DNA of 64,000 nt from an uncultured delta proteobacterium (GTDB lineage Bacteria; Myxococcota; Myxococcia; Myxococcales; Myxococcaceae), in the NCBI GenBank assembly GCA_963796055.1, contig CAWCKH010000004.1, forward strand, positions 64,001 to 128,000. The letters run 5' to 3'. The notes below the pieces were generated by a model. The model was not told the origin of the DNA. It searched no databases and was given only the letters and a program-made list of their open reading frames with translations. The translations under genes were made by a program, and so were the position numbers. Shown one piece after another: positions 8,371 to 54,867 of the stretch (within the stretch, counting starts at the first letter, position 1; the number at the start of each line of letters is the position of its first letter).

Positions 8371-9542
8371 CAGAAGCTCCCCGCCAGCTGGTAGTTCCGG
8401 GGCGCGAGCGTCAGCACCAGCGTGCGCCGGACCAGGCCGTCGTCAGGATTGCCCTCCTCGTCGCGGGCGAAGCCCCCGCCGTCGGAGGCCGCGACGCCGG
8501 GCCGCTCTCGCCGGGTCGAGCGAGCGACGAGGCGAACCTCCACCGCGCGCACCCGCCGCATGAGGGCGTCCCAGGCGGTGGGATCCAGTGCCAGAGGCCC
8601 CATGCCACCCGGAACGGCGCAGTCGCCACTCGGGCTCATCCCGGCGCACTGGTCGATGGAGACTCCGCCGTCCGCACCCGGGAACCAGGTGAGCGGCACG
8701 CCGGCATCGGTGGTCAGGTCCCGGACCCCGAAGGCCACGGTCATCTGTTCCACGTCACGGCTGACCTCGGTCCAGGTGTCGGAAGGAAGCGGCGGAGCGC
8801 GGGTGGTGTACTCGAGCACCGGCGCGCCGCTCGCCCAGTTGACCCGCAGGGTGACGCCTCCGGCGGGCATCACCACCGTGCGCTGGGTGGCGAACAGCGA
8901 GCCTCCCATCGCACAGCCGTCTCCAGCCGGTGCGTCGTTGGAGTTCGGATAGGGCGTGGTCGGCAGGGTCGCGGCGTGCACACCCGGCGTCCCGGCGCCC
9001 GCCAGCCCGGTGACGATCTGCGAGCAGGCCTCGGGCAGGTCCGGGTTGACGACGAACACCGGCGTCCCGGCGTCGAAGGTGGTGGCCGCGGTCGGGGTGC
9101 ACAGCCCCGCGCTCTCGCGGGAGAAGCCGCCGGTGCCCCCGTCGGCGCCGGAGAGGGCACAGGAGGCCAGCGGCACCAGCGCGGTGGGGTCGCCCCAGCG
9201 AAGCTGCAGCGAGTCGGAGATGCGGTCGGCGTAGATCGGCGGCGGCGGCGCGAAGTTCGGGAATCCGGTGAAGGGGTCCGCGGTGGTCACCTGGATGGCG
9301 TAGGCGAAGGTGGTCCCGCCGAGGTTGATGCGGGCGTTACCCATCCCCTCCCCCGCCCGCTGCAGCATCGGTCCGAAGAAGTCGGTCACCGCCTGCGTCC
9401 CGCCCTGGATCAACGAGCTCTGCTGCTCGATGAACGCCTTGCGCTGGAACTGCAGACCGACGCTGAGGGTCGCGGTGAGCACCACCAGTCCCATGGCGCT
9501 GGCCAGCATGGCCTCCATCAAGGTGTAGCCGCGCCGGGTCAT
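8370..9542 (-). CDS. pilW: Minor pilin, PilW-like
   Basis: MTRRG|YTLMEAMLASAMGLVVL, LQRAGEG, VSRDVEQMTVAFG, C-terminal LAPRN. Confidence 0.82.
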   Translation of the reverse strand: MTRRGYTLMEAMLASAMGLVVLTATLSVGLQFQRKAFIEQQSSLIQGGTQAVTDFFGPMLQRAGEGMGNARINLGGTTFAYAIQVTTADPFTGFPNFAPPPPIYADRISDSLQLRWGDPTALVPLASCALSGADGGTGGFSRESAGLCTPTAATTFDAGTPVFVVNPDLPEACSQIVTGLAGAGTPGVHAATLPTTPYPNSNDAPAGDGCAMGGSLFATQRTVVMPAGGVTLRVNWASGAPVLEYTTRAPPLPSDTWTEVSRDVEQMTVAFGVRDLTTDAGVPLTWFPGADGGVSIDQCAGMSPSGDCAVPGGMGPLALDPTAWDALMRRVRAVEVRLVARSTRRERPGVAASDGGGFARDEEGNPDDGLVRRTLVLTLAPRNYQLAGSF

Positions 9543-47056: not shown

Positions 47057-47595
47057 GCACCGGCTGGCGGACACTCCGCCGGGGCGAGGAGCACGACTTC
47101 ACCATCCTCCGCATCCGCGAGGACGTGGTGGCCGACCCGCACGGGCACGAGCACCCGAGGGTCATCATCTCCGCCCCGGACTGGGTGCACGTGCTGGCGC
47201 TCACCACCGATGGGCAGGCGGTGATGGTCCGGCAGTTCCGCGCGGGAATCCACGCCGACACCCTGGAGTTCCCGGGCGGCATGGTGGATCCCGGAGAGAC
47301 GCCCGAGGCCGCGGCGGCGCGCGAGCTGGAGGAGGAGACAGGCTTCGTCGCTGCGCGCTGGACGGCGCTCGGCGCCTGCCAGCCCAACCCCGCCATCCAG
47401 GAGAACCGCCTGCACAGCTTCCTCGCGCTCGACTGTCGCCGGAGGACGGAGCCGAAGCTCGACTCGGGCGAGGACGTCCGGGTCGAGCTGGTGCCCGCCG
47501 CCTCGCTCCGCGCACGGGTGGCAAGCGGGGAGATCACCCATGGCCTGGTGCTCGCCTCGATGTGCCAGGCGCTGGTGCGAGGGCTGCTCCCGTGA
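47053..47595 (+). CDS. NUDIX hydrolase (ADP-ribose pyrophosphatase-like)
   Basis: VRQFR, LEFPGGMVDPGETPEAAAARELEEETG (Nudix box); TTG start overlapping the upstream stop. Confidence 0.9.
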   Translation: MSTGWRTLRRGEEHDFTILRIREDVVADPHGHEHPRVIISAPDWVHVLALTTDGQAVMVRQFRAGIHADTLEFPGGMVDPGETPEAAAARELEEETGFVAARWTALGACQPNPAIQENRLHSFLALDCRRRTEPKLDSGEDVRVELVPAASLRARVASGEITHGLVLASMCQALVRGLLP

Positions 47596-48224
47596 GCGCG
47601 GTGCTGGCGCTGGTGCTCTCGCTGGCGATGTCGCCGGAGGCGGCCCGGGCGCGGCAGGGTCCGCTGCTCTTCGGGGCCGGGCAGGCCCAGTTCCTGCTCC
47701 TTTCTCCGGACGGTCCGGGTGACACCTTGCGCCTGACCCGGGTGCGGGTCCTCCACGACGATCTGGCGCAAGGCCGCAGCTTCGACGACGCCGAGTACCA
47801 CCTCGCGGTCGACGCGCCCCCGGCGCTCCACCCGGGGCAGCACCTCACCGGAGTGCTGTGGCGCTTCGGTGCCGAGAGCCCCGACGGCCGGAAACAGGTG
47901 GACGGGGTGGTGCGCGTGGAGGTCGAGCGCGAGGACCGGATCGCTCCGACCAAGGGCCGGGGCCTCGCCTACCGCGCGATGGGCACGCAGGACCGTCTGT
48001 ACCTGGTGCACGCCGGGATTGGCTTCGTGCAGGTGATCCGCGTCCAGCCGGCGAGCGAGGTGGAGATCCCACCGGCCGGGATCCCGGTCCGGGTCGACCG
48101 TCCGTCCGACGAGCCGGCCACCCGGCTTCTTCCCGGCGAGTACGCGAAGGTCGTCTTCGGTGATGGACGGACGGGCCGGGTCACCGCAAGGAGCGAGATC
48201 TGGTTCGTCGCCGCCTCCCGCTGA
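47592..48224 (+). CDS. Hypothetical exported beta-rich protein
   Basis: GTG overlaps the NUDIX stop; hydrophobic N-terminus ending AARA. Confidence 0.65.
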   Translation: MSAVLALVLSLAMSPEAARARQGPLLFGAGQAQFLLLSPDGPGDTLRLTRVRVLHDDLAQGRSFDDAEYHLAVDAPPALHPGQHLTGVLWRFGAESPDGRKQVDGVVRVEVEREDRIAPTKGRGLAYRAMGTQDRLYLVHAGIGFVQVIRVQPASEVEIPPAGIPVRVDRPSDEPATRLLPGEYAKVVFGDGRTGRVTARSEIWFVAASR

Positions 48225-48257: not shown

Positions 48258-48881
48258 GTGGCGTCGGCTGAACCTTCACCGGGCGCCGTGGCGCTCGGGT
48301 TCTCGGTCCACACGGGCTGGGCGGCGCTGGTCGCGGTGTCGCGATCGGCCTCGTCGATGGCCGTGCTCGACCGCCGCCGGGTGGGGATGCTGCCGGTGCC
48401 GCCCACGCCGCGCCAGGACGCCTATCCGCACGTCTATCACGCCGCACGCGAGCTCCCGCTCGAGGAGGCGGAGCGGTTCGTGCGCATCGCCGAGCAGGAG
48501 GCGCGCTCCAAGGCGCGACAGGTTCTCGGGGCGGCCATCGAGGATCTCCGGGAAGCGGGGCATCACGTTCTGGGCAGTGCGGTCATCATCGCCAGGGAGG
48601 GGCCTCCGCGGTCGCTGGAGGAGATCCTCCGCAGCCACACCCTGGTCCACGCCGCGGAGGGCACGCTCTTCCGCGCGGTCATCCGTGGCGCGAGCGAGGA
48701 CCTGGGGCTCGCCGTCCTCCAGGTTCCTGCACCGGAGCTCGTGCAGCGGGCGGCGCGCGCCCTCGGCCTCTCCAAGGAGGAGGTCCCCGGTTACCTGGAG
48801 CGGGTGGGGCGCGAGCTCGGACCGCCCTGGACCGCGGACCACAAGGCCGCGAGCCTGGCCGCGGTCCTCGCGCTGAGCTGA
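48258..48881 (+). CDS. Hypothetical protein
   Basis: ALGFSVHTGWAALVAV...ILRSHTLVHAAEG...GPPWTADHKAA; coding-like codon usage. Confidence 0.7.
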   Translation: MASAEPSPGAVALGFSVHTGWAALVAVSRSASSMAVLDRRRVGMLPVPPTPRQDAYPHVYHAARELPLEEAERFVRIAEQEARSKARQVLGAAIEDLREAGHHVLGSAVIIAREGPPRSLEEILRSHTLVHAAEGTLFRAVIRGASEDLGLAVLQVPAPELVQRAARALGLSKEEVPGYLERVGRELGPPWTADHKAASLAAVLALS

Positions 48882-48916
48882 GCGCTCCCCGAGCCAGGGT
48901 CCCGTCGTTTCGCGGC

Positions 48917-51865
48917 TCAGTGCCGGACGCCGGCAGCGGGTGCGTGGGGAATCTCCGCCCAGTCTCCCTGGAGCACGAAGGCAGCCCAGGTGTACGGAGC
49001 GTCGAAGGGGCGCGTGCGGGCGAGCTTGCGTTGCGCCTGCCGGAGCGCCGCGGACGGACGCTGGCCTTCGACCAGCATCGCCCGGTAGAGCTCCTTCATC
49101 AGCTCGGCCGTCCCCTGGTCCGAGACCTTCCACAGGCTCGCCAGCACCTGCCGCGCCCCGGCGTGGATGAAGCCGCGGGTGAGGCCCACCATTCCCTCAC
49201 CCCGGATGCGCTTTCCCAGCGCCGTCTGGCAAGCGCTGAGGACCACCAGGTCAGCACCGATGTGCATGCCGTAGATGTCCTGGAGCCGGAGGAACCCGTT
49301 CTGTGGCTTCCCGGCCGGGTCGACCAGGGAGAGCACGAGACCCGAGAGCTCGGGGTGCTGGCTGTTCAGCAGCCCGTGGGTGGCGAAGTGGAGGATGCGG
49401 TACGCGCTCACCGAGGGGTCCATCGCCAGCGCCCGGCGGGCCTCGAACCCCGTCGCAGCGAGGCTCTGACCCCGGGGGGCGAGAGCGAGGATGCCCTCGG
49501 CGTCGAGACGTGTCCCCGGGAGCCGCACCAGCCGCTGCAGGCCCAGCTCGTCCATGGAACGCTGGAGGTCTGCCGGGACCAGCGCCGCCGCCAGGCCTGT
49601 CCTCGCCTGCAGACGCGGATCCCCCCGATCGAACACCGGATCTGCGAGCACCGCGACCGCGCCGGCATGCCGGTCGGCGTGCTCGGCTGCCCGCACTGCG
49701 GCCACGGCCGATGCCGAGGGCACGAGGATGACCTCGTGTTCCTCGACCAGCCGGCGCTGGGTCCGAGGCAGCACCAGCGCGGGAAAGGGCAGCTCGTGAA
49801 GGACACCATCGGCGGCGATTGCCAGGCGCTTGCCACGGATCCGCTCCAGCGCCGGCTCCAGCACCATCCTCCCCAGCCGCGAGGCCAGGCGCCGTTCGGC
49901 GGTCGGGTCCGACACGGGCGACTGCCAGAGCTGGGCGAGCCTGCGCGCCTCTCGCTCGATGCGCCCGCGCGCCGGGAGCACCCGGACGTCGATCGATCCG
50001 GGGGTCACGACGAAGAGGAAGCTCCGGTCGGTCCCCAGGAGGTACTGGAGCAGCACCGTGTCCCCGTCGAGCACCCGTGACTGCACCGCGGACAGGCGGA
50101 GAGGTTCGCCCCCTGCCAGCGCCGCGAGCCGCGGATTGCTCTGACGCATCCGGGCCCGGACGTCGTCGAGCTCGGTCATCACCCGCCGGAGCTCCGGGAC
50201 GTCGGTGGACACCCGGGCTCCCGCGGCTGTGCGCCGGGCCACATCCGCGGAGACACGCTCCGCTTCCTCCAGCAGCCGGCGCTCGCGGGCCACCAGCTCC
50301 GGGTCGGCGCCGCGCCTGATGTCCACCCGCGCCTCGAGTAGGAGATCGAGCAGACTCCGGGCCCGCGCCCGCTCGCTGATCCAGAACATCTCCGCCAGAC
50401 GGGCCGGATCGGGCGCGCGCTGCTGGAGGTCCCACAGCACCGAGACGAGCAGCTCGTAGCGGTCGCGGTTCCGGGCGGTCCAGTCGCTGCGCACGCTCCC
50501 ACCGGGGCGCAGGAGGCGGCCGGAGTCGGTGAGGTCCACCGCCTGGACCAGCGAGTCGCGGCTCTCCTCGAGGCGGCCGAGCGCGCGCTGCGCCTTTGCG
50601 AGATTCGTCAGCGAGACCGCCTGCTGGTTGGTGTCGGGCGCCTCCTGCGCCATCCGCAGCGCGGCACCGTGCAGCGTCACCGCCTCCTCCGGCCGGCCCT
50701 CCAGCTGCAAGATCTCCCCCAGCCCATCGTGGGTGATGGCGAGATTGACCCGGTCTCCGATCGGGGTGAGGAGCTCGATGGCCTCGCGGTAGGCGCGCTT
50801 GGCCTCGGCGAGCCGGTGCGTGTCTCCGTACACCCAGCCCAGATGGTAGAGCGAGACGGCCTGGTTCCGGCGGTCCCCCAGTGCCCGGTGCGCCTCCAGG
50901 GCCTGGCGGAACTGGCCCTCCGCCTCGGCGTATCGCTCGAGATCGTAGAGCACCACCCCGATGACGTCCTTGGTGGTGCCCCGGCGTTCCGGGCGCGGCT
51001 CGGTGCGCTCGGCCGCCCGCAGGAACTCGAGCGCCCGCTCCCACTGCTTGGAGGTCAGGTGGTTGAAGCCCAGGTTGTGGAGGATCATCGCCTTCAGCCC
51101 GGGGCGGGCCAGCGGCTCGGCCAGCTCGCGCGCACGTCGGAGGTCCTCCAGGGCCCCCACCGAGTTGGAGAGGCTGTCCCGGATCACCCCGCGGTCGTTG
51201 TACGCCAGGGCGAGCGCGCGCGGGTCGCCGAGCTGCTCGCGGAGCTCGATGGCACGGGTGATCGACGTCTCGGCACGCTCCAGCTCCCCCAGCTCCCAGA
51301 GGATGCTTGCCACCGTGGCGTGGACGTCGGACTCACCGCGCCCATCACCCGCCTGGCGCGCGAGCGCCGCGGCGCGCGCCTCCAAATCGACCGCCTCCCG
51401 GAGGGTGGGCTCCGCGTGCTCGGCCCAGAGCACCATGGCGCGCTGGTGCAGCCGCTCGGCCTGGATCCGCTTCTCGTCGAGCAGCGTGGGTGCGCGCGGC
51501 GGCTCGATGCGCACCACTGCCTCCCCGGCCGGCTCCGAGGAGGTGCCGAGGATGAGCTGACAGACTCCGGAACGGGTGGGCACCGCGGCCGCCGGGAGCT
51601 CCTCCGGCTCATCCGGGTCCAAGGAGTTTCGCACCTCGGCCAGGATCTCGCCGGATGGATCGCGCAGCTGGACGCGCACCGGCTGGAGATCCGGATCGAC
51701 GGTCGTCCGGAGGAGCACGCCGGCGGTGCAGGGGAGCTCGACGATGCTCGGCTCGCCGGCGGTGAGCTTCACCGTCCGTACCTCCGCGGGGGCTGGTGCC
51801 GGCGCCGCATCGGCGGCCAGCGCTGCGAGGAGGGCCGGGAGAAGGAGCGAGCAGCGCGAAGGCAA
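48917..51865 (-). CDS. Putatively exported TPR-CHAT (caspase-like, clan CD) protease
   Basis: TTG start then signal-like PSRCSLLLPALLAALAADA; beta-sandwich-like region; TPR array; ERARARSLLD; catalytic ILHFATHG and VVLSACQT; ASLWKVSD, WAAFVLQG. The frame stays open to ATG 52144, so the start is uncertain. Confidence 0.9.
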   Translation of the reverse strand: MPSRCSLLLPALLAALAADAAPAPAPAEVRTVKLTAGEPSIVELPCTAGVLLRTTVDPDLQPVRVQLRDPSGEILAEVRNSLDPDEPEELPAAAVPTRSGVCQLILGTSSEPAGEAVVRIEPPRAPTLLDEKRIQAERLHQRAMVLWAEHAEPTLREAVDLEARAAALARQAGDGRGESDVHATVASILWELGELERAETSITRAIELREQLGDPRALALAYNDRGVIRDSLSNSVGALEDLRRARELAEPLARPGLKAMILHNLGFNHLTSKQWERALEFLRAAERTEPRPERRGTTKDVIGVVLYDLERYAEAEGQFRQALEAHRALGDRRNQAVSLYHLGWVYGDTHRLAEAKRAYREAIELLTPIGDRVNLAITHDGLGEILQLEGRPEEAVTLHGAALRMAQEAPDTNQQAVSLTNLAKAQRALGRLEESRDSLVQAVDLTDSGRLLRPGGSVRSDWTARNRDRYELLVSVLWDLQQRAPDPARLAEMFWISERARARSLLDLLLEARVDIRRGADPELVARERRLLEEAERVSADVARRTAAGARVSTDVPELRRVMTELDDVRARMRQSNPRLAALAGGEPLRLSAVQSRVLDGDTVLLQYLLGTDRSFLFVVTPGSIDVRVLPARGRIEREARRLAQLWQSPVSDPTAERRLASRLGRMVLEPALERIRGKRLAIAADGVLHELPFPALVLPRTQRRLVEEHEVILVPSASAVAAVRAAEHADRHAGAVAVLADPVFDRGDPRLQARTGLAAALVPADLQRSMDELGLQRLVRLPGTRLDAEGILALAPRGQSLAATGFEARRALAMDPSVSAYRILHFATHGLLNSQHPELSGLVLSLVDPAGKPQNGFLRLQDIYGMHIGADLVVLSACQTALGKRIRGEGMVGLTRGFIHAGARQVLASLWKVSDQGTAELMKELYRAMLVEGQRPSAALRQAQRKLARTRPFDAPYTWAAFVLQGDWAEIPHAPAAGVRH

Positions 51866-51874
51866 CGGCCAGGG

Positions 51875-51905
51875 GCGGTGCGAACCCGAGAAGACCAAGG
51901 GCTCG
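51875..51905 (+). promoter_or_regulatory. Candidate ECF-type promoter, degenerate copy, for the hidden peptide gene
   Basis: GCGGTGCGA-N17-GCTCG; the 12-mer GGGGCGGTGCGA (51872-51883) is identical to 53588-53599. Confidence 0.5.
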
Positions 51906-51911
51906 ATCAGG

Positions 51912-52034
51912 GTGGTGGCGGTGATGTTCCTCGCGGTGTCCCTCGTCGGGCTGCTCTTGTCGTTCGCGGCCGCGACCTCGACCGCGGCGCAGGACTCACA
52001 GGACGTCTCGGTGGAGAGCATCCAGGGCACTTGA
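51912..52034 (+). CDS. Tiny putative secreted peptide (36-40 aa), antisense to the cassette
   Basis: (MVAV)MFLAVSLVGLLLSFAAATSTAA-QDSQDVSVESIQGT*; starts GTG 51912 or ATG 51924; promoter-like motif upstream and hairpin downstream. Confidence 0.55.
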   Translation: MVAVMFLAVSLVGLLLSFAAATSTAAQDSQDVSVESIQGT

Positions 52035-52081
52035 CCAGCGGTCCGAGGACCGGACACGCCACCCCCTGTCGACCCACTCCG

Positions 52082-52109
52082 GGAGGTCTCCTCGAAAGAG
52101 GGGACCTCC
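52082..52109 (+). terminator. 12-bp GAAA-tetraloop hairpin between the peptide stop and the anti-sigma stop
   Basis: GGAGGTCTCCTC-GAAA-GAGGGGACCTCC (one U-G pair). Confidence 0.6.
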
Positions 52110-52140
52110 TCGTCGTTGCTGGAGAAGGGGCTCGAGAGGC

Positions 52141-52953
52141 TCATCGCTGCGCAGCAGGAAGGGTCCGGAACTCGTGCGTGGAGACGGGCAGGCGCCGCCC
52201 GCTCCGGGCCTCACCCTCGAGCAGGAGGGTGTACCGGCCCGGGGGCAGCAGCGCGCCGTCGACGACCAGGAGGAGCGCCTCCCGCGTGGCAGGCATGAGC
52301 GCGTCCTCGAGGATGGTGGTGCCCTGCTGCGAGCGGACCGTCACCCGGTACCGCTCGAAGCGCGCCGGCAGCTCCCGCTCGATCCACAGCGCGACGGGCT
52401 GTCCGGGCGAAGGGAGGGTCAGGGTCGGCAGCTGGGCGCCCCGGGTGGTCAGCAGCGCGAGCACGGGCACCGGTGTCCCTCCGCTCGACCTCGGAGCCCC
52501 GACACCGGTCTTTGGCGCCCGCGTGGGGGCCTGTTCCAGCTGCGAGCGGGCGCGGGCGAGCTCCGCCTCGGTGCGGGCGAGCGCGTCCGTCTTCTCCGCC
52601 AGCCTCTGCTCCACCTTCCGGATGCGCAGGGAACTCGCCCAGAGCAGCCCGGCAAACGCCGCGGTCGCGGCCAGTCCCACCGCCAGGCGCATGCGGGTGG
52701 CCCTGCGAGGCGGCGCCCGTCGCTGCGCGCGGCGCGCCTCGGCGGCGGGCGTTCGCTGCTCGAGGGTCAAGAAGCCGTCCCGCATCCTCTCGGCGGACTC
52801 GACCCGGTCGAGGCACTCGGAGCAGCCCACCAGGTGAGCCTCGAACGACGGGCGCCGCTCCGCGGAGAGCTGTCCGGTGGCGTACTCCTCGGGCACACTC
52901 GTCTCGTGCCACTCCGACCCCTGTCCGCGACCGGCGTCCATCTCCCCAGTCAT
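52141..52953 (-). CDS. Zinc-finger (zf-HC2/ZAS) membrane anti-sigma factor
   Basis: FEAHLVGCSEC (HxxxCxxC), one TM helix (LAVGLAATAAFAGLLWA), coiled coil, C-terminal beta domain (RYRVTV...LPPGRYTLLL); coupled to the sigma gene. Confidence 0.85.
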   Translation of the reverse strand: MTGEMDAGRGQGSEWHETSVPEEYATGQLSAERRPSFEAHLVGCSECLDRVESAERMRDGFLTLEQRTPAAEARRAQRRAPPRRATRMRLAVGLAATAAFAGLLWASSLRIRKVEQRLAEKTDALARTEAELARARSQLEQAPTRAPKTGVGAPRSSGGTPVPVLALLTTRGAQLPTLTLPSPGQPVALWIERELPARFERYRVTVRSQQGTTILEDALMPATREALLLVVDGALLPPGRYTLLLEGEARSGRRLPVSTHEFRTLPAAQR

Positions 52954-53537
52954 GTGTGAGAACCCCCCGAATTATCGCTCCGCTCCCAGAGTGCCCGGAA
53001 CCGCTCGCGGGCGCGGTGGACGATGCGATTGAACTGGAGCCGATCGACCCCCAGCTCGGCGCAGAGCAGGTCCTTGTCCTCCTGGCCCAGGTAGAAACGC
53101 CGTAGCACTGCTCGGTCCCGCTCGGTGGGGAGCGCCTCGAGGACCTTCTCCACCCGCCGCGCGTCCTCCTCTCGCTCCAGCCGCTCGGTGGGGGATGGAT
53201 CCGGGGACTCCAGCCGGTCCAGTCCCGCGTCGTCCTCGGGCACCGAGCGGCGCGCCTTCCGGAAGTGCTCGATGGCCAGGTTGCGGGCGAGCCCCGCGAG
53301 AAACCCCCCGAGCTGCGAGGCATCCCGGAGCGCACCCGCGCGGATTCGCTCCAGCCCGATCCGGAAGGTCTCCTGGTGCAGGTCCTCCACCAGCGCCGCG
53401 TCACGCGCGATGTGCCGGAGGATGACCCGGATGCCGCGGCTGAAGGTGTGGACCAGCTCGGCCTCGGCAGAGCGGTCTCCGTCGCGGATGCGCTGGGCGA
53501 AGGTCGCGGCGGCTGCGGCAAGGTCCGTCACCTGCAT
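52950..53537 (-). CDS. ECF RNA polymerase sigma factor
   Basis: Region 2 EDLHQETF...FLAGLARNLAIEHFRK; region 4 LEALPTERDRAVLRRFY...HRARERFR. Confidence 0.92.
   Translation of the reverse strand: MQVTDLAAAAATFAQRIRDGDRSAEAELVHTFSRGIRVILRHIARDAALVEDLHQETFRIGLERIRAGALRDASQLGGFLAGLARNLAIEHFRKARRSVPEDDAGLDRLESPDPSPTERLEREEDARRVEKVLEALPTERDRAVLRRFYLGQEDKDLLCAELGVDRLQFNRIVHRARERFRALWERSDNSGGSHT
52953..52983 (-). promoter_or_regulatory. Candidate ECF promoter inside the sigma gene 3' end, facing the anti-sigma
   Basis: Minus strand GCGGAGCGA-N17-ACACA, same spacing as the copy at 53591. Confidence 0.55.
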
Positions 53538-53590
53538 CCGATGCTGCCACGATCTGGAGATCCTGAAGTAGCCGCCCGCTCCCGACCGGG

Positions 53591-53621
53591 GCGGTGCGAC
53601 TTCCAGCCCGGCCCCGACACA
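53591..53621 (+). promoter_or_regulatory. Candidate ECF promoter for the divergent peptide genes
   Basis: GCGGTGCGA-N17-ACACA, followed by AGGAG RBS (53645-53649) and ATG 53656. Confidence 0.6.
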
Positions 53622-53655
53622 GGACCTGGTGATTCACCCAACCCAGGAGCCGCCC

Positions 53656-53892
53656 ATGACTACCGCCGCCCGGAAGCACACGTTCCTCTTCCTCGTCGTC
53701 TTGTCTGCCCTGGCGGTGCTCTCGTCCGCCGGGAGTCGACAGGTCACCGCCCACGCCGCGGTCACCCCGGCCGTCGAGGGCAACCCGGACGGAGCCACGG
53801 CCGAGCGGCAGACGTTCCACATCGCGAGCGGGGACCAGGACGTCGGGCCGGGCGATGCCGAGCCCGCCCTCGCCCGGCACAGCTTCCAGTGA
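53656..53892 (+). CDS. Small secreted peptide precursor (78 aa)
   Basis: AGGAG RBS; Sec-type signal MTTAARKHTFLFLVVLSALAVLSSA...AHA; acidic unstructured mature part. Confidence 0.7.
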   Translation: MTTAARKHTFLFLVVLSALAVLSSAGSRQVTAHAAVTPAVEGNPDGATAERQTFHIASGDQDVGPGDAEPALARHSFQ

Positions 53893-54092
53893 ACGTGCGT
53901 GGGATGGCCAGGAAGTACCCGCTGCTCAGGGTCATCGTGCTCAACGTCCTCGCGGTGCTGACCTACGACACCGTCCGGCAGCCCTCGGCCCGCGCGGCCC
54001 TGCTCAGGGCGGCGCGCACGATGACCGCGGTCCAGTCCTCGGCCGGCGCCACGCGGGCGAGCGCGGGCGAGCTGCCGCTGGTGTCCCGGTGA
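53889..54092 (+). CDS. Small hypothetical membrane/secreted peptide (62-67 aa)
   Basis: GTG overlaps the upstream stop (GTGA), alternative ATG 53904; MARKYPLLRVIVLNVLAVLTY... Confidence 0.5.
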   Translation: MNVRGMARKYPLLRVIVLNVLAVLTYDTVRQPSARAALLRAARTMTAVQSSAGATRASAGELPLVSR

Positions 54093-54105
54093 GTGGTCGG
54101 ACAGG

Positions 54106-54867
54106 TCAGCGCCGCAGGAACAGCCCCACGGCGCTGATCAGGGCCACCACGGCGAAGATTCCCCGAAGCGCCCGCTCGGGCAGCCGGTGGGCGAGGGCCA
54201 CCCCGAGCGGCATCGTGGCCACCCCGCCCACCGCGAGGGCCAGCCCCCGGACCCAGTCGATGTTGCCCGCCCGCCCGTAGACGACGAGGTTCACCACCGT
54301 CCCCGGCGCCACCAGCGCAAGCCCCATGCCCTGGGCCGTTGCCTGTCCCATGGCGTGCAGGGTGGTCATGAGCGGCACGGTGAGGAGCGAACCGCCGACC
54401 CCGAACACGCCGGAGACGAACCCGCCGACCAGCCCGAAGACGACGGCGATCCGGGGCGGGAGCCGGGCATCGGGGTCAACGCGGATTTCCGCCGAGCGGC
54501 TCCGGAGCCCGTAGAAGAGCGCGAGCGAGAGGAGGAACGCCGCGAACCCGACCCGGAGCGCGCTGGACGGGGCAACGGTCGCCAGCCGCGCGCCGACGTA
54601 GGTGGAGAACGGAGCGAGGAGCGCGAGCAGCTGCGCCCCGCGCGGGTCGAAGCCGCGGTGGCGGGCATAGCGCCAGAGCCCGACGAGGACGTTCGGGACC
54701 ACCATCACCAGCGCGGTGCCCTGCGCGCGCTGCTGGTTGAGACCGAAGAACACGCCGAGCAGCGGGATGATGAACAGCCCGCCGCCGATGCCCACGATGC
54801 CGCTGAGGACGCCGATGCCGGCGCCGAGCACCACATCCAGGGCGACCTCCGCCGGGGCGATGACCAT
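54106..54867 (-). CDS. TauE/SafE-family sulfite exporter
   Basis: Duplicated GxxGIGGG / GVFGVGG motifs, AQGT; about 8 TM helices. Confidence 0.88.
   Translation of the reverse strand: MVIAPAEVALDVVLGAGIGVLSGIVGIGGGLFIIPLLGVFFGLNQQRAQGTALVMVVPNVLVGLWRYARHRGFDPRGAQLLALLAPFSTYVGARLATVAPSSALRVGFAAFLLSLALFYGLRSRSAEIRVDPDARLPPRIAVVFGLVGGFVSGVFGVGGSLLTVPLMTTLHAMGQATAQGMGLALVAPGTVVNLVVYGRAGNIDWVRGLALAVGGVATMPLGVALAHRLPERALRGIFAVVALISAVGLFLRR

Follow-up and report, generated by a model that had tools for sequence, protein, structure and literature searches.

A split DdvS/DdvA-like cassette in the Myxococcaceae: a candidate proteolytic switch with small-peptide cargo

What kind of regulatory system is formed by genes for a sigma factor of the extracytoplasmic function (ECF) type, an anti-sigma factor bound to the membrane, and a TPR-CHAT protein that lie together with a few very short open reading frames (ORFs)? 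The question is raised by a cassette at positions 48917-54092 of a 64,000-nucleotide (nt) stretch of contig CAWCKH010000004.1 (the window), from an uncultured soil member of the Myxococcaceae whose genome assembly, GCA_963796055.1, is 98.5% complete. A sequence-only reading of the cassette had proposed that an exported peptide binds a periplasmic TPR-CHAT protease, that the protease clips the anti-sigma, and that the freed sigma makes more peptide and more anti-sigma. We lean, by a narrow measure, toward regarding the locus as a split DdvS/DdvA-like proteolytic switch. The parts, their linkage, the catalytic residues, the enrichment and position of a promoter-like motif, and the conservation of a peptide can all be read from the DNA. 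The core features are as follows.

52950-53537, minus strand: ECF sigma factor, 195 amino acids (aa); TIGR02937, 60 bits against a cut-off of 42.9
52141-52953, minus strand: anti-sigma, 270 aa, overlapping the sigma gene; zinc-type domain, one transmembrane helix, ectodomain
52441-52443, minus strand: Arg171 in TTRG, in the loop opening the ectodomain; invariant, candidate site-1 cleavage site
48917-51865, minus strand: TPR-CHAT protein, 982 aa from TTG 51865; Pfam CHAT and TPR, alignment of 14 homologues
49376-49378, minus strand: catalytic His830 (second H of HFATHG), invariant in 14/14 homologues
49229-49231, minus strand: catalytic Cys879 (LSAC), invariant in 14/14 homologues

Judged by gene content, the sigma/anti-sigma/CHAT trio is a family in the Myxococcaceae and the Acidobacteriota. 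A profile search of genome contigs found 258 sigma relatives among species-representative genomes, which makes the family a broad one, and returned 80 loci; leaving aside 14 already seen (ten from Myxococcota, four acidobacterial) gave a held-out set of 66, of which one is from the Myxococcaceae and the remainder mostly from Acidobacteriota. The sigma gene sits directly upstream of an anti-sigma gene in all 66, as it does in the window, and a CHAT gene lies within 6 kb in 60 of the 66 (38 of the 39 that have full flanks). The closest named relatives are Myxococcaceae genomes with 72-81% sigma identity; every named relative seen is metagenome-assembled and belongs to the Myxococcota or Acidobacteriota. 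Of 150 other genomes in the window's own family, 9 yielded the sigma, and these belong to two genera.

At this chromosomal site the whole module moves together. The cassette is present in full in five genomes; two genomes that have the sigma elsewhere carry only the motif and peptide here; G078 has a deletion scar joining the promoter and peptide gene to a CHAT remnant; and G091 has an empty site, with no such sigma found. Five CHAT genes were found in the host genome, all adjoining a sigma and a zinc-type anti-sigma gene (three of these calls were made by eye). One set is a paralogous locus on contig C7, with 74% identity in the sigma and 50% in the CHAT domain.

The sigma and anti-sigma are much as the sequence-only reading described them. 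The zinc-type motif of the anti-sigma is HLVGCSEC, and its HxxxCxxC pattern is kept in 23/23 aligned relatives and 61 of the 66 held-out loci; the match to zf-HC2 (20.7 bits) is slightly below the 22.2 cut-off, and the nearest solved chain is 3hug_B (E = 0.0013). A single transmembrane helix of weak hydrophobicity (1.62) is predicted at residues ~90-108, and in the structural model it continues into a helical stalk and then a C-terminal immunoglobulin-like (Ig-like) beta-sandwich ectodomain. The conserved start is Met5. Fold matches of the ectodomain to phage neck and T-cell receptor domains were taken as "Ig-like" only, and its Atlas matches are unnamed acidobacterial clusters.

The TPR-CHAT protein matches the Pfam CHAT domain with an E value of 9.8e-63 and has the expected catalytic His and Cys. 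It also has the signal-like N terminus that had been noticed, although not at the start of the 1075-aa ORF formed by the stop-to-stop frame, which reaches 52144: the signal-like segment begins at TTG 51865, the position of an ATG in relatives, and the 93 codons upstream of this TTG have a coding score of 0.012, against 0.43-0.50 for the small ORF sA on the opposite strand. TTG 51865 is most likely the true start. The structural model (pLDDT 80) consists of a signal-like helix (~3-19), a beta domain (~28-120), a TPR superhelix (~128-510), and the CHAT domain (~600-970). Its top Foldseek matches are DdvA (8rw5 and 8rot), followed by Craspase and separase, and the TPR part resembles the peptide-binding superhelix of LGN/Pins. 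A crude hydrophobicity test found signal-like starts in 36 of 44 complete held-out CHATs, and export to the periplasm, as originally supposed, is predicted. The anti-sigma and the TPR-CHAT protein come from two genes, whose frames differ and are divided by a stop.

The sequence-only reading knew of no characterized myxobacterial system like this one. That claim fell, since DdvS/DdvA is known, with structure, RseP dependence, and a proposed site-1 role for CHAT, and the proposed signaling logic thus has a myxobacterial precedent. In the portions of the DdvA report drawn on here (PMC11506125), the DdvA protein of Myxococcus xanthus spans the membrane as an anti-sigma and carries its TPR-CHAT in the periplasm; truncations without the TPR-CHAT are degraded by RseP, and self-cleavage by CHAT is proposed as site-1. 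The DdvA CHAT has no three-helix motif and is completed in the dimer, and the survey made there was restricted to fused proteins. The pair is described as a phage-defense regulator of Myxococcus, with CBASS/CRISPR as DdvS cargo, in the corresponding portions of PMC11506125 and PMC6061681.

The window locus shares with DdvS/DdvA an ECF sigma, a zinc-type single-transmembrane anti-sigma, and a TPR-CHAT with a His-Cys dyad, whose periplasmic location is predicted here by hydrophobicity. In contrast to the fused DdvA, the TPR-CHAT here is encoded on its own, with a predicted signal peptide and an N-terminal beta domain; an Ig-like ectodomain belongs to the anti-sigma itself, the cargo consists of small peptides rather than CBASS/CRISPR, and the N-terminal Cys of the DdvA CHCC site is without a clear counterpart. 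The DdvS promoter, GTAA-n16-CGT, has no match in the window, where chance would give 0.75. With a separate protease and a different promoter, the locus is not a DdvS/DdvA member. The absence of a CRISPR context was borne out, with no CRISPR-like array in the window and no Cas1 found in the host genome. The sigma/anti-sigma/CHAT logic is already published for DdvA; the present analysis found the motif TG[CA]GA[TC]-N17-CA[CG], the unnamed sB peptide family, and the invariant ectodomain Arg. A literature search, with subscription papers mostly outside its coverage, found no paper on the split sigma/anti-sigma/CHAT form or on the peptides.

In the model that we slightly favor, the zinc-type domain of the anti-sigma would tether the ECF sigma at the inner membrane, as is known for the family, while the separately encoded TPR-CHAT would be exported to the periplasm and be inactive at rest. 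Binding of a signal to its beta/TPR part would align His830 and Cys879, and CHAT would then cut the anti-sigma ectodomain, most likely after Arg171. An RseP-type intramembrane protease would complete anti-sigma removal, as for truncated DdvA; the host genome encodes a candidate, an M50 protein of 540 aa bearing HELGH. The freed sigma would transcribe TG[CA]GA[TC]-N17-CA[CG] sites, turning on the gene of its anti-sigma (reset) and a handful of cargo genes close by, which at this locus would code for small peptides, exported or anchored in the membrane. What we infer in this model is that CHAT is exported, that it cuts the anti-sigma, that the sigma recognizes the motif, and what kind of signal acts. 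A split system is attractive in that protease, substrate, and candidate ligand can be made and mixed separately. The analysis provides a candidate promoter, a candidate cut site, and candidate peptides for this, and DdvA's signal and the site-1 role of CHAT are questions that such a system could address.

Arg171 is a lead for the cut site, and the most likely one. It is kept in 23/23 relatives and in 63/63 aligned held-out rows (3 of the 66 are gapped), and the following residue is G, S, D, or A in 62 of those 63 rows. The ratio of nonsynonymous to synonymous substitution rates (dN/dS) is 0.18 for the sigma, 0.51 for the anti-sigma, and 0.42 for CHAT, and all three frames are intact. The closest relative, G058, is 91% identical and was used for pairwise alignment.

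The regulatory half of the model rests on the motif and on the small ORFs, which are as follows.

53595-53621, plus strand: motif TGCGAC-N17-CACA, 61 nt before the sB start; same place in relatives
52951-52979, minus strand: variant motif AGCGAT-N17-CACA, at the sigma 3' end upstream of the anti-sigma; looser pattern
51872-51888, plus strand: left half of a promoter-like motif and junction of a net 60-nt deletion, from alignment with G058
51888-52034, plus strand: sA, gene for a small hydrophobic protein, lacking its 5' end; in G058 it has an ATG and codes for 48 aa
53656-53892, plus strand: sB, 78 aa, AGGAG ribosome-binding site; hydrophobic N terminus, variable linker, conserved C-terminal core (DQDVGPGDAEPALA)
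53904-54092, plus strand: sC, decayed sB paralogue; sB-family profile covers positions 4-54 only, E 1.5e-6

In the held-out set, TG[CA]GA[TC]-N17-CA[CG] has 106 sites, spread over 59 of the 66 loci, against 10-29 sites at other spacers (13-21); it shows no excess in 10 loci of other ECF/anti-sigma/CHAT types (3 sites, against 1-4 at other spacers). Among the Myxococcaceae loci, TGCGA[CT]-N17-CAC is found 55-81 nt ahead of almost all small hydrophobic ORFs, which belong to four unrelated families, and in five loci it stands before the CHAT gene itself. The TGAGAT variant plays the same part in Acidobacteriota; it was spotted by eye and then tested on the held-out loci, and unguided motif enumeration in the first acidobacterial loci returned GC-rich background only. 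A looser motif precedes the anti-sigma in 11 of 13 Myxococcaceae rows, the window included, and 6 held-out sites were called before an anti-sigma, with about 12 more by position. One motif thus precedes both peptides and anti-sigma, which gives sequence support to the wiring proposed earlier, more peptide and more anti-sigma. It is our inference that the sigma of the cassette recognizes the motif.

What the motif drives appears to differ widely. Of the 106 held-out sites, 29 lead to mid-size proteins without a signal peptide (of 110-250 aa), 19 to secreted proteins of middle or greater length, 7 to small ORFs, 7 to other long ORFs, and 6 to the anti-sigmas; the remaining 38 lack a called ORF. 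Among promoters of the nonsecreted mid-size cargo, 20/28 start within 60 nt of the CHAT stop. Many mid-size cargo proteins of unrelated families share short C-terminal tails (DQVGVWGA, DVGSGTFTA), and some acidobacterial tails are loosely like the sB core, by eye only. In L123, L138, L159-L161, L163, L164, L172, and L178, a family of 140-154-aa proteins without a signal peptide follows directly after CHAT and ends in GDP[DE]Q[VM][GA]VWG; the two members scanned had no Pfam match.

The earlier reading had counted three short ORFs with hydrophobic N termini on the opposite strand. All three do lie on the plus strand and have hydrophobic N termini, sA between anti-sigma and CHAT and sB and sC beyond the sigma gene, but only sB is intact. 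sA has lost its start: relative to G058, a net 60-nt deletion at 51883/51888 removed the sA ATG, its ribosome-binding site, the right motif half, and DNA immediately upstream of the CHAT start. sA is 45 aa in three other relatives; the window copy keeps an in-frame GTG (51912) and ATG (51924), and sA dN/dS is 0.40 against G058 and 0.48-0.50 between other relatives. sC is recognizable in its N-terminal half; the family core is missing in all three frames, and in G058 the gene is deleted save for five or six codons. In G110, G128, G119, and G095 an sB-type gene shares the strand of the sigma and is upstream of it; only in the window and G058 is it divergent. Small hydrophobic ORFs recur among Myxococcaceae relatives, where at least four unrelated families occupy the peptide slot.

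The sB family comprises 59 library proteins at E<=0.001, 56 of them of 53-110 aa, with a core of A-x-A-D-x-D-[VFIL]-G-P-G-x-x-E-P-x-L (short form DxDVGPGxxEP) in which the G-P-G columns were partly fixed by the search pattern. sB had no Pfam match and no Atlas hit; of ten family clusters looked up, eight are nameless and two are "hypothetical protein." The family occurs in 10/10 genomes of the window's genus and in one other genus; a set of 300 other genomes from the phylum gave 7 with it, each of them within those two genera. Weak profile matches in other genera (E 5e-4 to 0.009, mostly long open frames) were judged to be chance, and none in the phylum sample reached a threshold of 1e-4. Nineteen copies were inspected: the motif accompanies all 11 that lie at a sigma/CHAT locus or syntenic site and none of the 8 found elsewhere. 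The sB family is missing from all 66 held-out loci.

Several observations weigh against the proteolytic switch that we favor. The loci of the Myxococcaceae and the first ones from Acidobacteriota served to define the motif, which leaves the held-out count as the only fair test, and the held-out loci are kin; in the window alone the motif count is 2 against 3.0 expected, not above chance. Genome-wide, the strict motif is found 9 times at spacer 17 against 7-15 at other spacers, which argues against a large regulon and indicates a local one. The CHAT start of the window is without a ribosome-binding motif and has lost upstream DNA, and signal peptides were assessed by a crude hydrophobicity test only. 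The residues at which CHAT proteases cleave vary (Arg, Met, Leu), so that an invariant Arg171 may be structural: separase cuts after Arg and craspases after Met or Leu, as given in the portions consulted of PMC11506125, and a Runella gasdermin is cleaved by CHAT after Leu. The same portions of that report state that DdvA catalytic mutants are as wild type at rest, that no signal is known, and that the site-1 role of CHAT is proposed only (PMC11506125).

The alternative that we rate highest, possible although not what we expect, is that the peptides serve as output only, either as exported effectors or as substrates of CHAT, with their action elsewhere, and that the trigger is an unrelated envelope or phage cue. 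Motif-led cargo is highly varied, spanning secreted proteins, proteins without a signal peptide, and a possible ribosomally synthesized and posttranslationally modified peptide (RiPP) precursor; sB-family genes also lie beside transporter, HD-domain, and aminopeptidase-like genes, and DdvS drives unrelated defense cargo. A free cargo slot, however, would not need a small gene with a conserved tail to adjoin CHAT as repeatedly as it does (20/28 within 60 nt).

A special case of the switch, which we consider doubtful, would make the processed peptide core (of sB type, or of sA type for this CHAT clade) the activating ligand of TPR-CHAT, giving positive-feedback periplasmic cell-to-cell signaling. 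The build of sB is precursor-like, with a hydrophobic N terminus, a free linker (dN/dS 1.08 against G058), and a conserved acidic core, and the size of the family, the motif at all 11 copies in sigma/CHAT or syntenic sites, the LGN/Pins-like TPR, and the loosely sB-like tails of unrelated acidobacterial cargo are consistent with it. So is a quick CHAT tree (last 470 residues of 18 proteins, without bootstrap), in which 6/6 CHATs of the window's clade adjoin an sA-type gene and 5/7 of the sister clade an sB-type gene; kin share labels, however, so the pattern is not independent evidence, and two sister-clade loci carry another peptide. The family is also present in G014 and G091, where no copy of this sigma was found, and its absence from the held-out loci together with its occurrence away from such loci leaves the peptide as ligand unproven. 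High dN/dS values (0.87 overall for sB against G058 and 0.8-0.9 for a further peptide family, sD; small counts) point the same way, and as a general rule the idea is opposed by held-out cargo that is mostly nonexported proteins of 110-250 aa or larger secreted ones, and by a locus at which one of three peptides is intact.

Carried to its full form, the ligand idea becomes a Gram-negative peptide circuit, which we rate as unlikely: a sigma-made, membrane-anchored precursor would present a short acidic tail (in these myxobacteria DxDVGPGxxEP) to the periplasmic TPR-CHAT of the same or a neighboring cell, the anti-sigma would be cut after the invariant Arg, and tail type and CHAT clade would define the signaling group. 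If true, it would supply a missing class of signal for DdvA-like sensors; acidobacterial tails sit on nonexported cargo, and their release would need lysis.

Independently of mechanism, this copy might be decaying and the C7 paralogue be the working system of the genome, a suggestion that we also hold to be doubtful. The 60-nt deletion at the divergent starts of sA and CHAT, the decayed sC, the loss of the cassette in G078, and the presence of the paralogue speak for decay, while the intact sigma, anti-sigma, and CHAT frames and their dN/dS values speak against it. In one contig of depth 2, the sequence agrees with the window, save for 1 difference, from exactly 51888, and is preceded there by 47 different letters; the deletion may therefore be peculiar to the strain or an error of assembly. 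Among the pieces listed, no contig bridges the junction at 51883/51888.

It is unlikely, in our estimate, that CHAT is a co-regulated protease or binding shield that does not cut the anti-sigma, with the anti-sigma sensing through its own Ig-like domain. The motif before the CHAT gene in five Myxococcaceae loci, as for a target gene, and the DdvA catalytic mutants without a resting phenotype would fit such a role. No motif-led ORF of the held-out set was called as CHAT, however, so CHAT looks premade and sensor-like, and DdvA, in which the same parts are fused, speaks for direct coupling. That the peptides are feedback inhibitors, securin-like pseudosubstrates shutting the protease off after induction, seems quite improbable: they share the promoter motif with the anti-sigma, the known off-switch, and separase is controlled by the inhibitor securin, but the switch would then tend to stay on in this copy, which has lost sA.

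Other known systems resemble the cassette in part. RRNPP receptors are cytoplasmic TPR proteins that read reimported peptides and have a helix-turn-helix (HTH) or phosphatase output. The likeness lies in a TPR superhelix with a small exported precursor nearby; the window TPR protein differs in being predicted periplasmic and in ending in a protease, and Pfam/NCBIfam scans of it matched no HTH family. Type III-E Craspase (Csx29/Csx30/sigma; PMC10028731) and type III-B SAVED-CHAT (10.1101/2023.06.23.546230), as far as the portions of those sources consulted go, share the TPR-CHAT fold and a protease linked to a sigma factor. The Csx29 family model scores 13 bits against the window CHAT, with a cut-off of 300. 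The Craspase and SAVED-CHAT systems are cytoplasmic and are triggered by RNA or cyclic oligoadenylate.

ECF54, as described in the consulted portions of the ECF reclassification (PMC7826278), is 100% actinobacterial, with a TPR-CHAT gene in its conserved context, no putative anti-sigma, subtilase and carboxypeptidase-regulatory neighbors, and the motif GTATCAG/CTCC. It is like the window locus in joining an ECF sigma with TPR-CHAT; the window locus differs in having an anti-sigma, relatives in Myxococcota/Acidobacteriota, and TauE and housekeeping neighbors. "CHAT" is found nowhere in the main text of that paper, and ECF54 is the sole CHAT-linked group among the supplement matches listed (PMC7826278).

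Within the cassette, one further element, a strong hairpin, lies where sA and the anti-sigma converge, between their 3' ends.

52081-52109, plus strand: hairpin, z -2.96, with 1/200 shuffles as stable

Read on the minus strand, the same hairpin has z -1.47, and no sigma-70 promoters or T-run terminators were found in 48700-54300. Translational coupling through the ATGA at the anti-sigma stop was considered and is not supported: the overlap comes from an Arg-stop where relatives have an immediate stop next, and so it is no evidence for coupling. The CHAT-upstream frame at this overlap is open also in the closest relative. The TauE and housekeeping genes are the neighbors of the cassette in the window, and the insertion site is flanked by two conserved genes (47562-48224 and 48258-48881) with no notable Pfam/NCBIfam match.

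Related sets were seen at other loci. The C7 paralogue (L027:5613-10780) holds CHAT, sigma, and anti-sigma genes with small ORFs of 55 and 69 aa, and the motif precedes CHAT and the 55-aa ORF. A DdvS/DdvA-like pair at L032:3632-7032 (G000:C4, about 773600-777000) consists of a sigma gene and then a fused zf-HC2-TPR-CHAT of 963 aa, with no CRISPR seen in the 12 kb around it. Two sigma/HxxxCxxC anti-sigma/CHAT sets of another type (L028:4719-8577 and L029:6009-9920) are without the motif, and similar sets occur in the genus. L001:1985-8147 contains a tandem duplication of the anti-sigma 3' end, small ORF, and CHAT gene.

Copies of the sB family away from such loci have settings of their own. On contig C4 (G000:C4, about 3599800-3602500; also L064 and L068), two sB-family genes and a truncated third, without the motif and conserved in the genus, are flanked on one side by a penicillin-binding-protein-like gene and on the other by an operon for branched-chain amino acid transport (names by eye). 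Copies at L030:7560-7811 and L031:9828-10100 end in a Cys pair (GPGQCEPCV), directly follow an HD-domain gene, and are near a DUF4062/NB-ARC gene in a region that appears duplicated. Second-genus copies (L066:1483-2275, L069:1483-1704, and L183:1507-1725) have a lipobox-like LAGC, suggesting lipoprotein precursors. In L021 an 81-aa ORF stands behind the motif (8585-9300), with an apparent RiPP-modifying gene (by eye) after it, and a secreted protein whose tail repeats DKGYGIDPDG is the product of L021:1624-1926. Cassettes in L051, L052, L053, L112, and L116, in both phyla, have a secreted cytochrome c protein (CCP_MauG-like) as neighbor, sometimes behind the motif.

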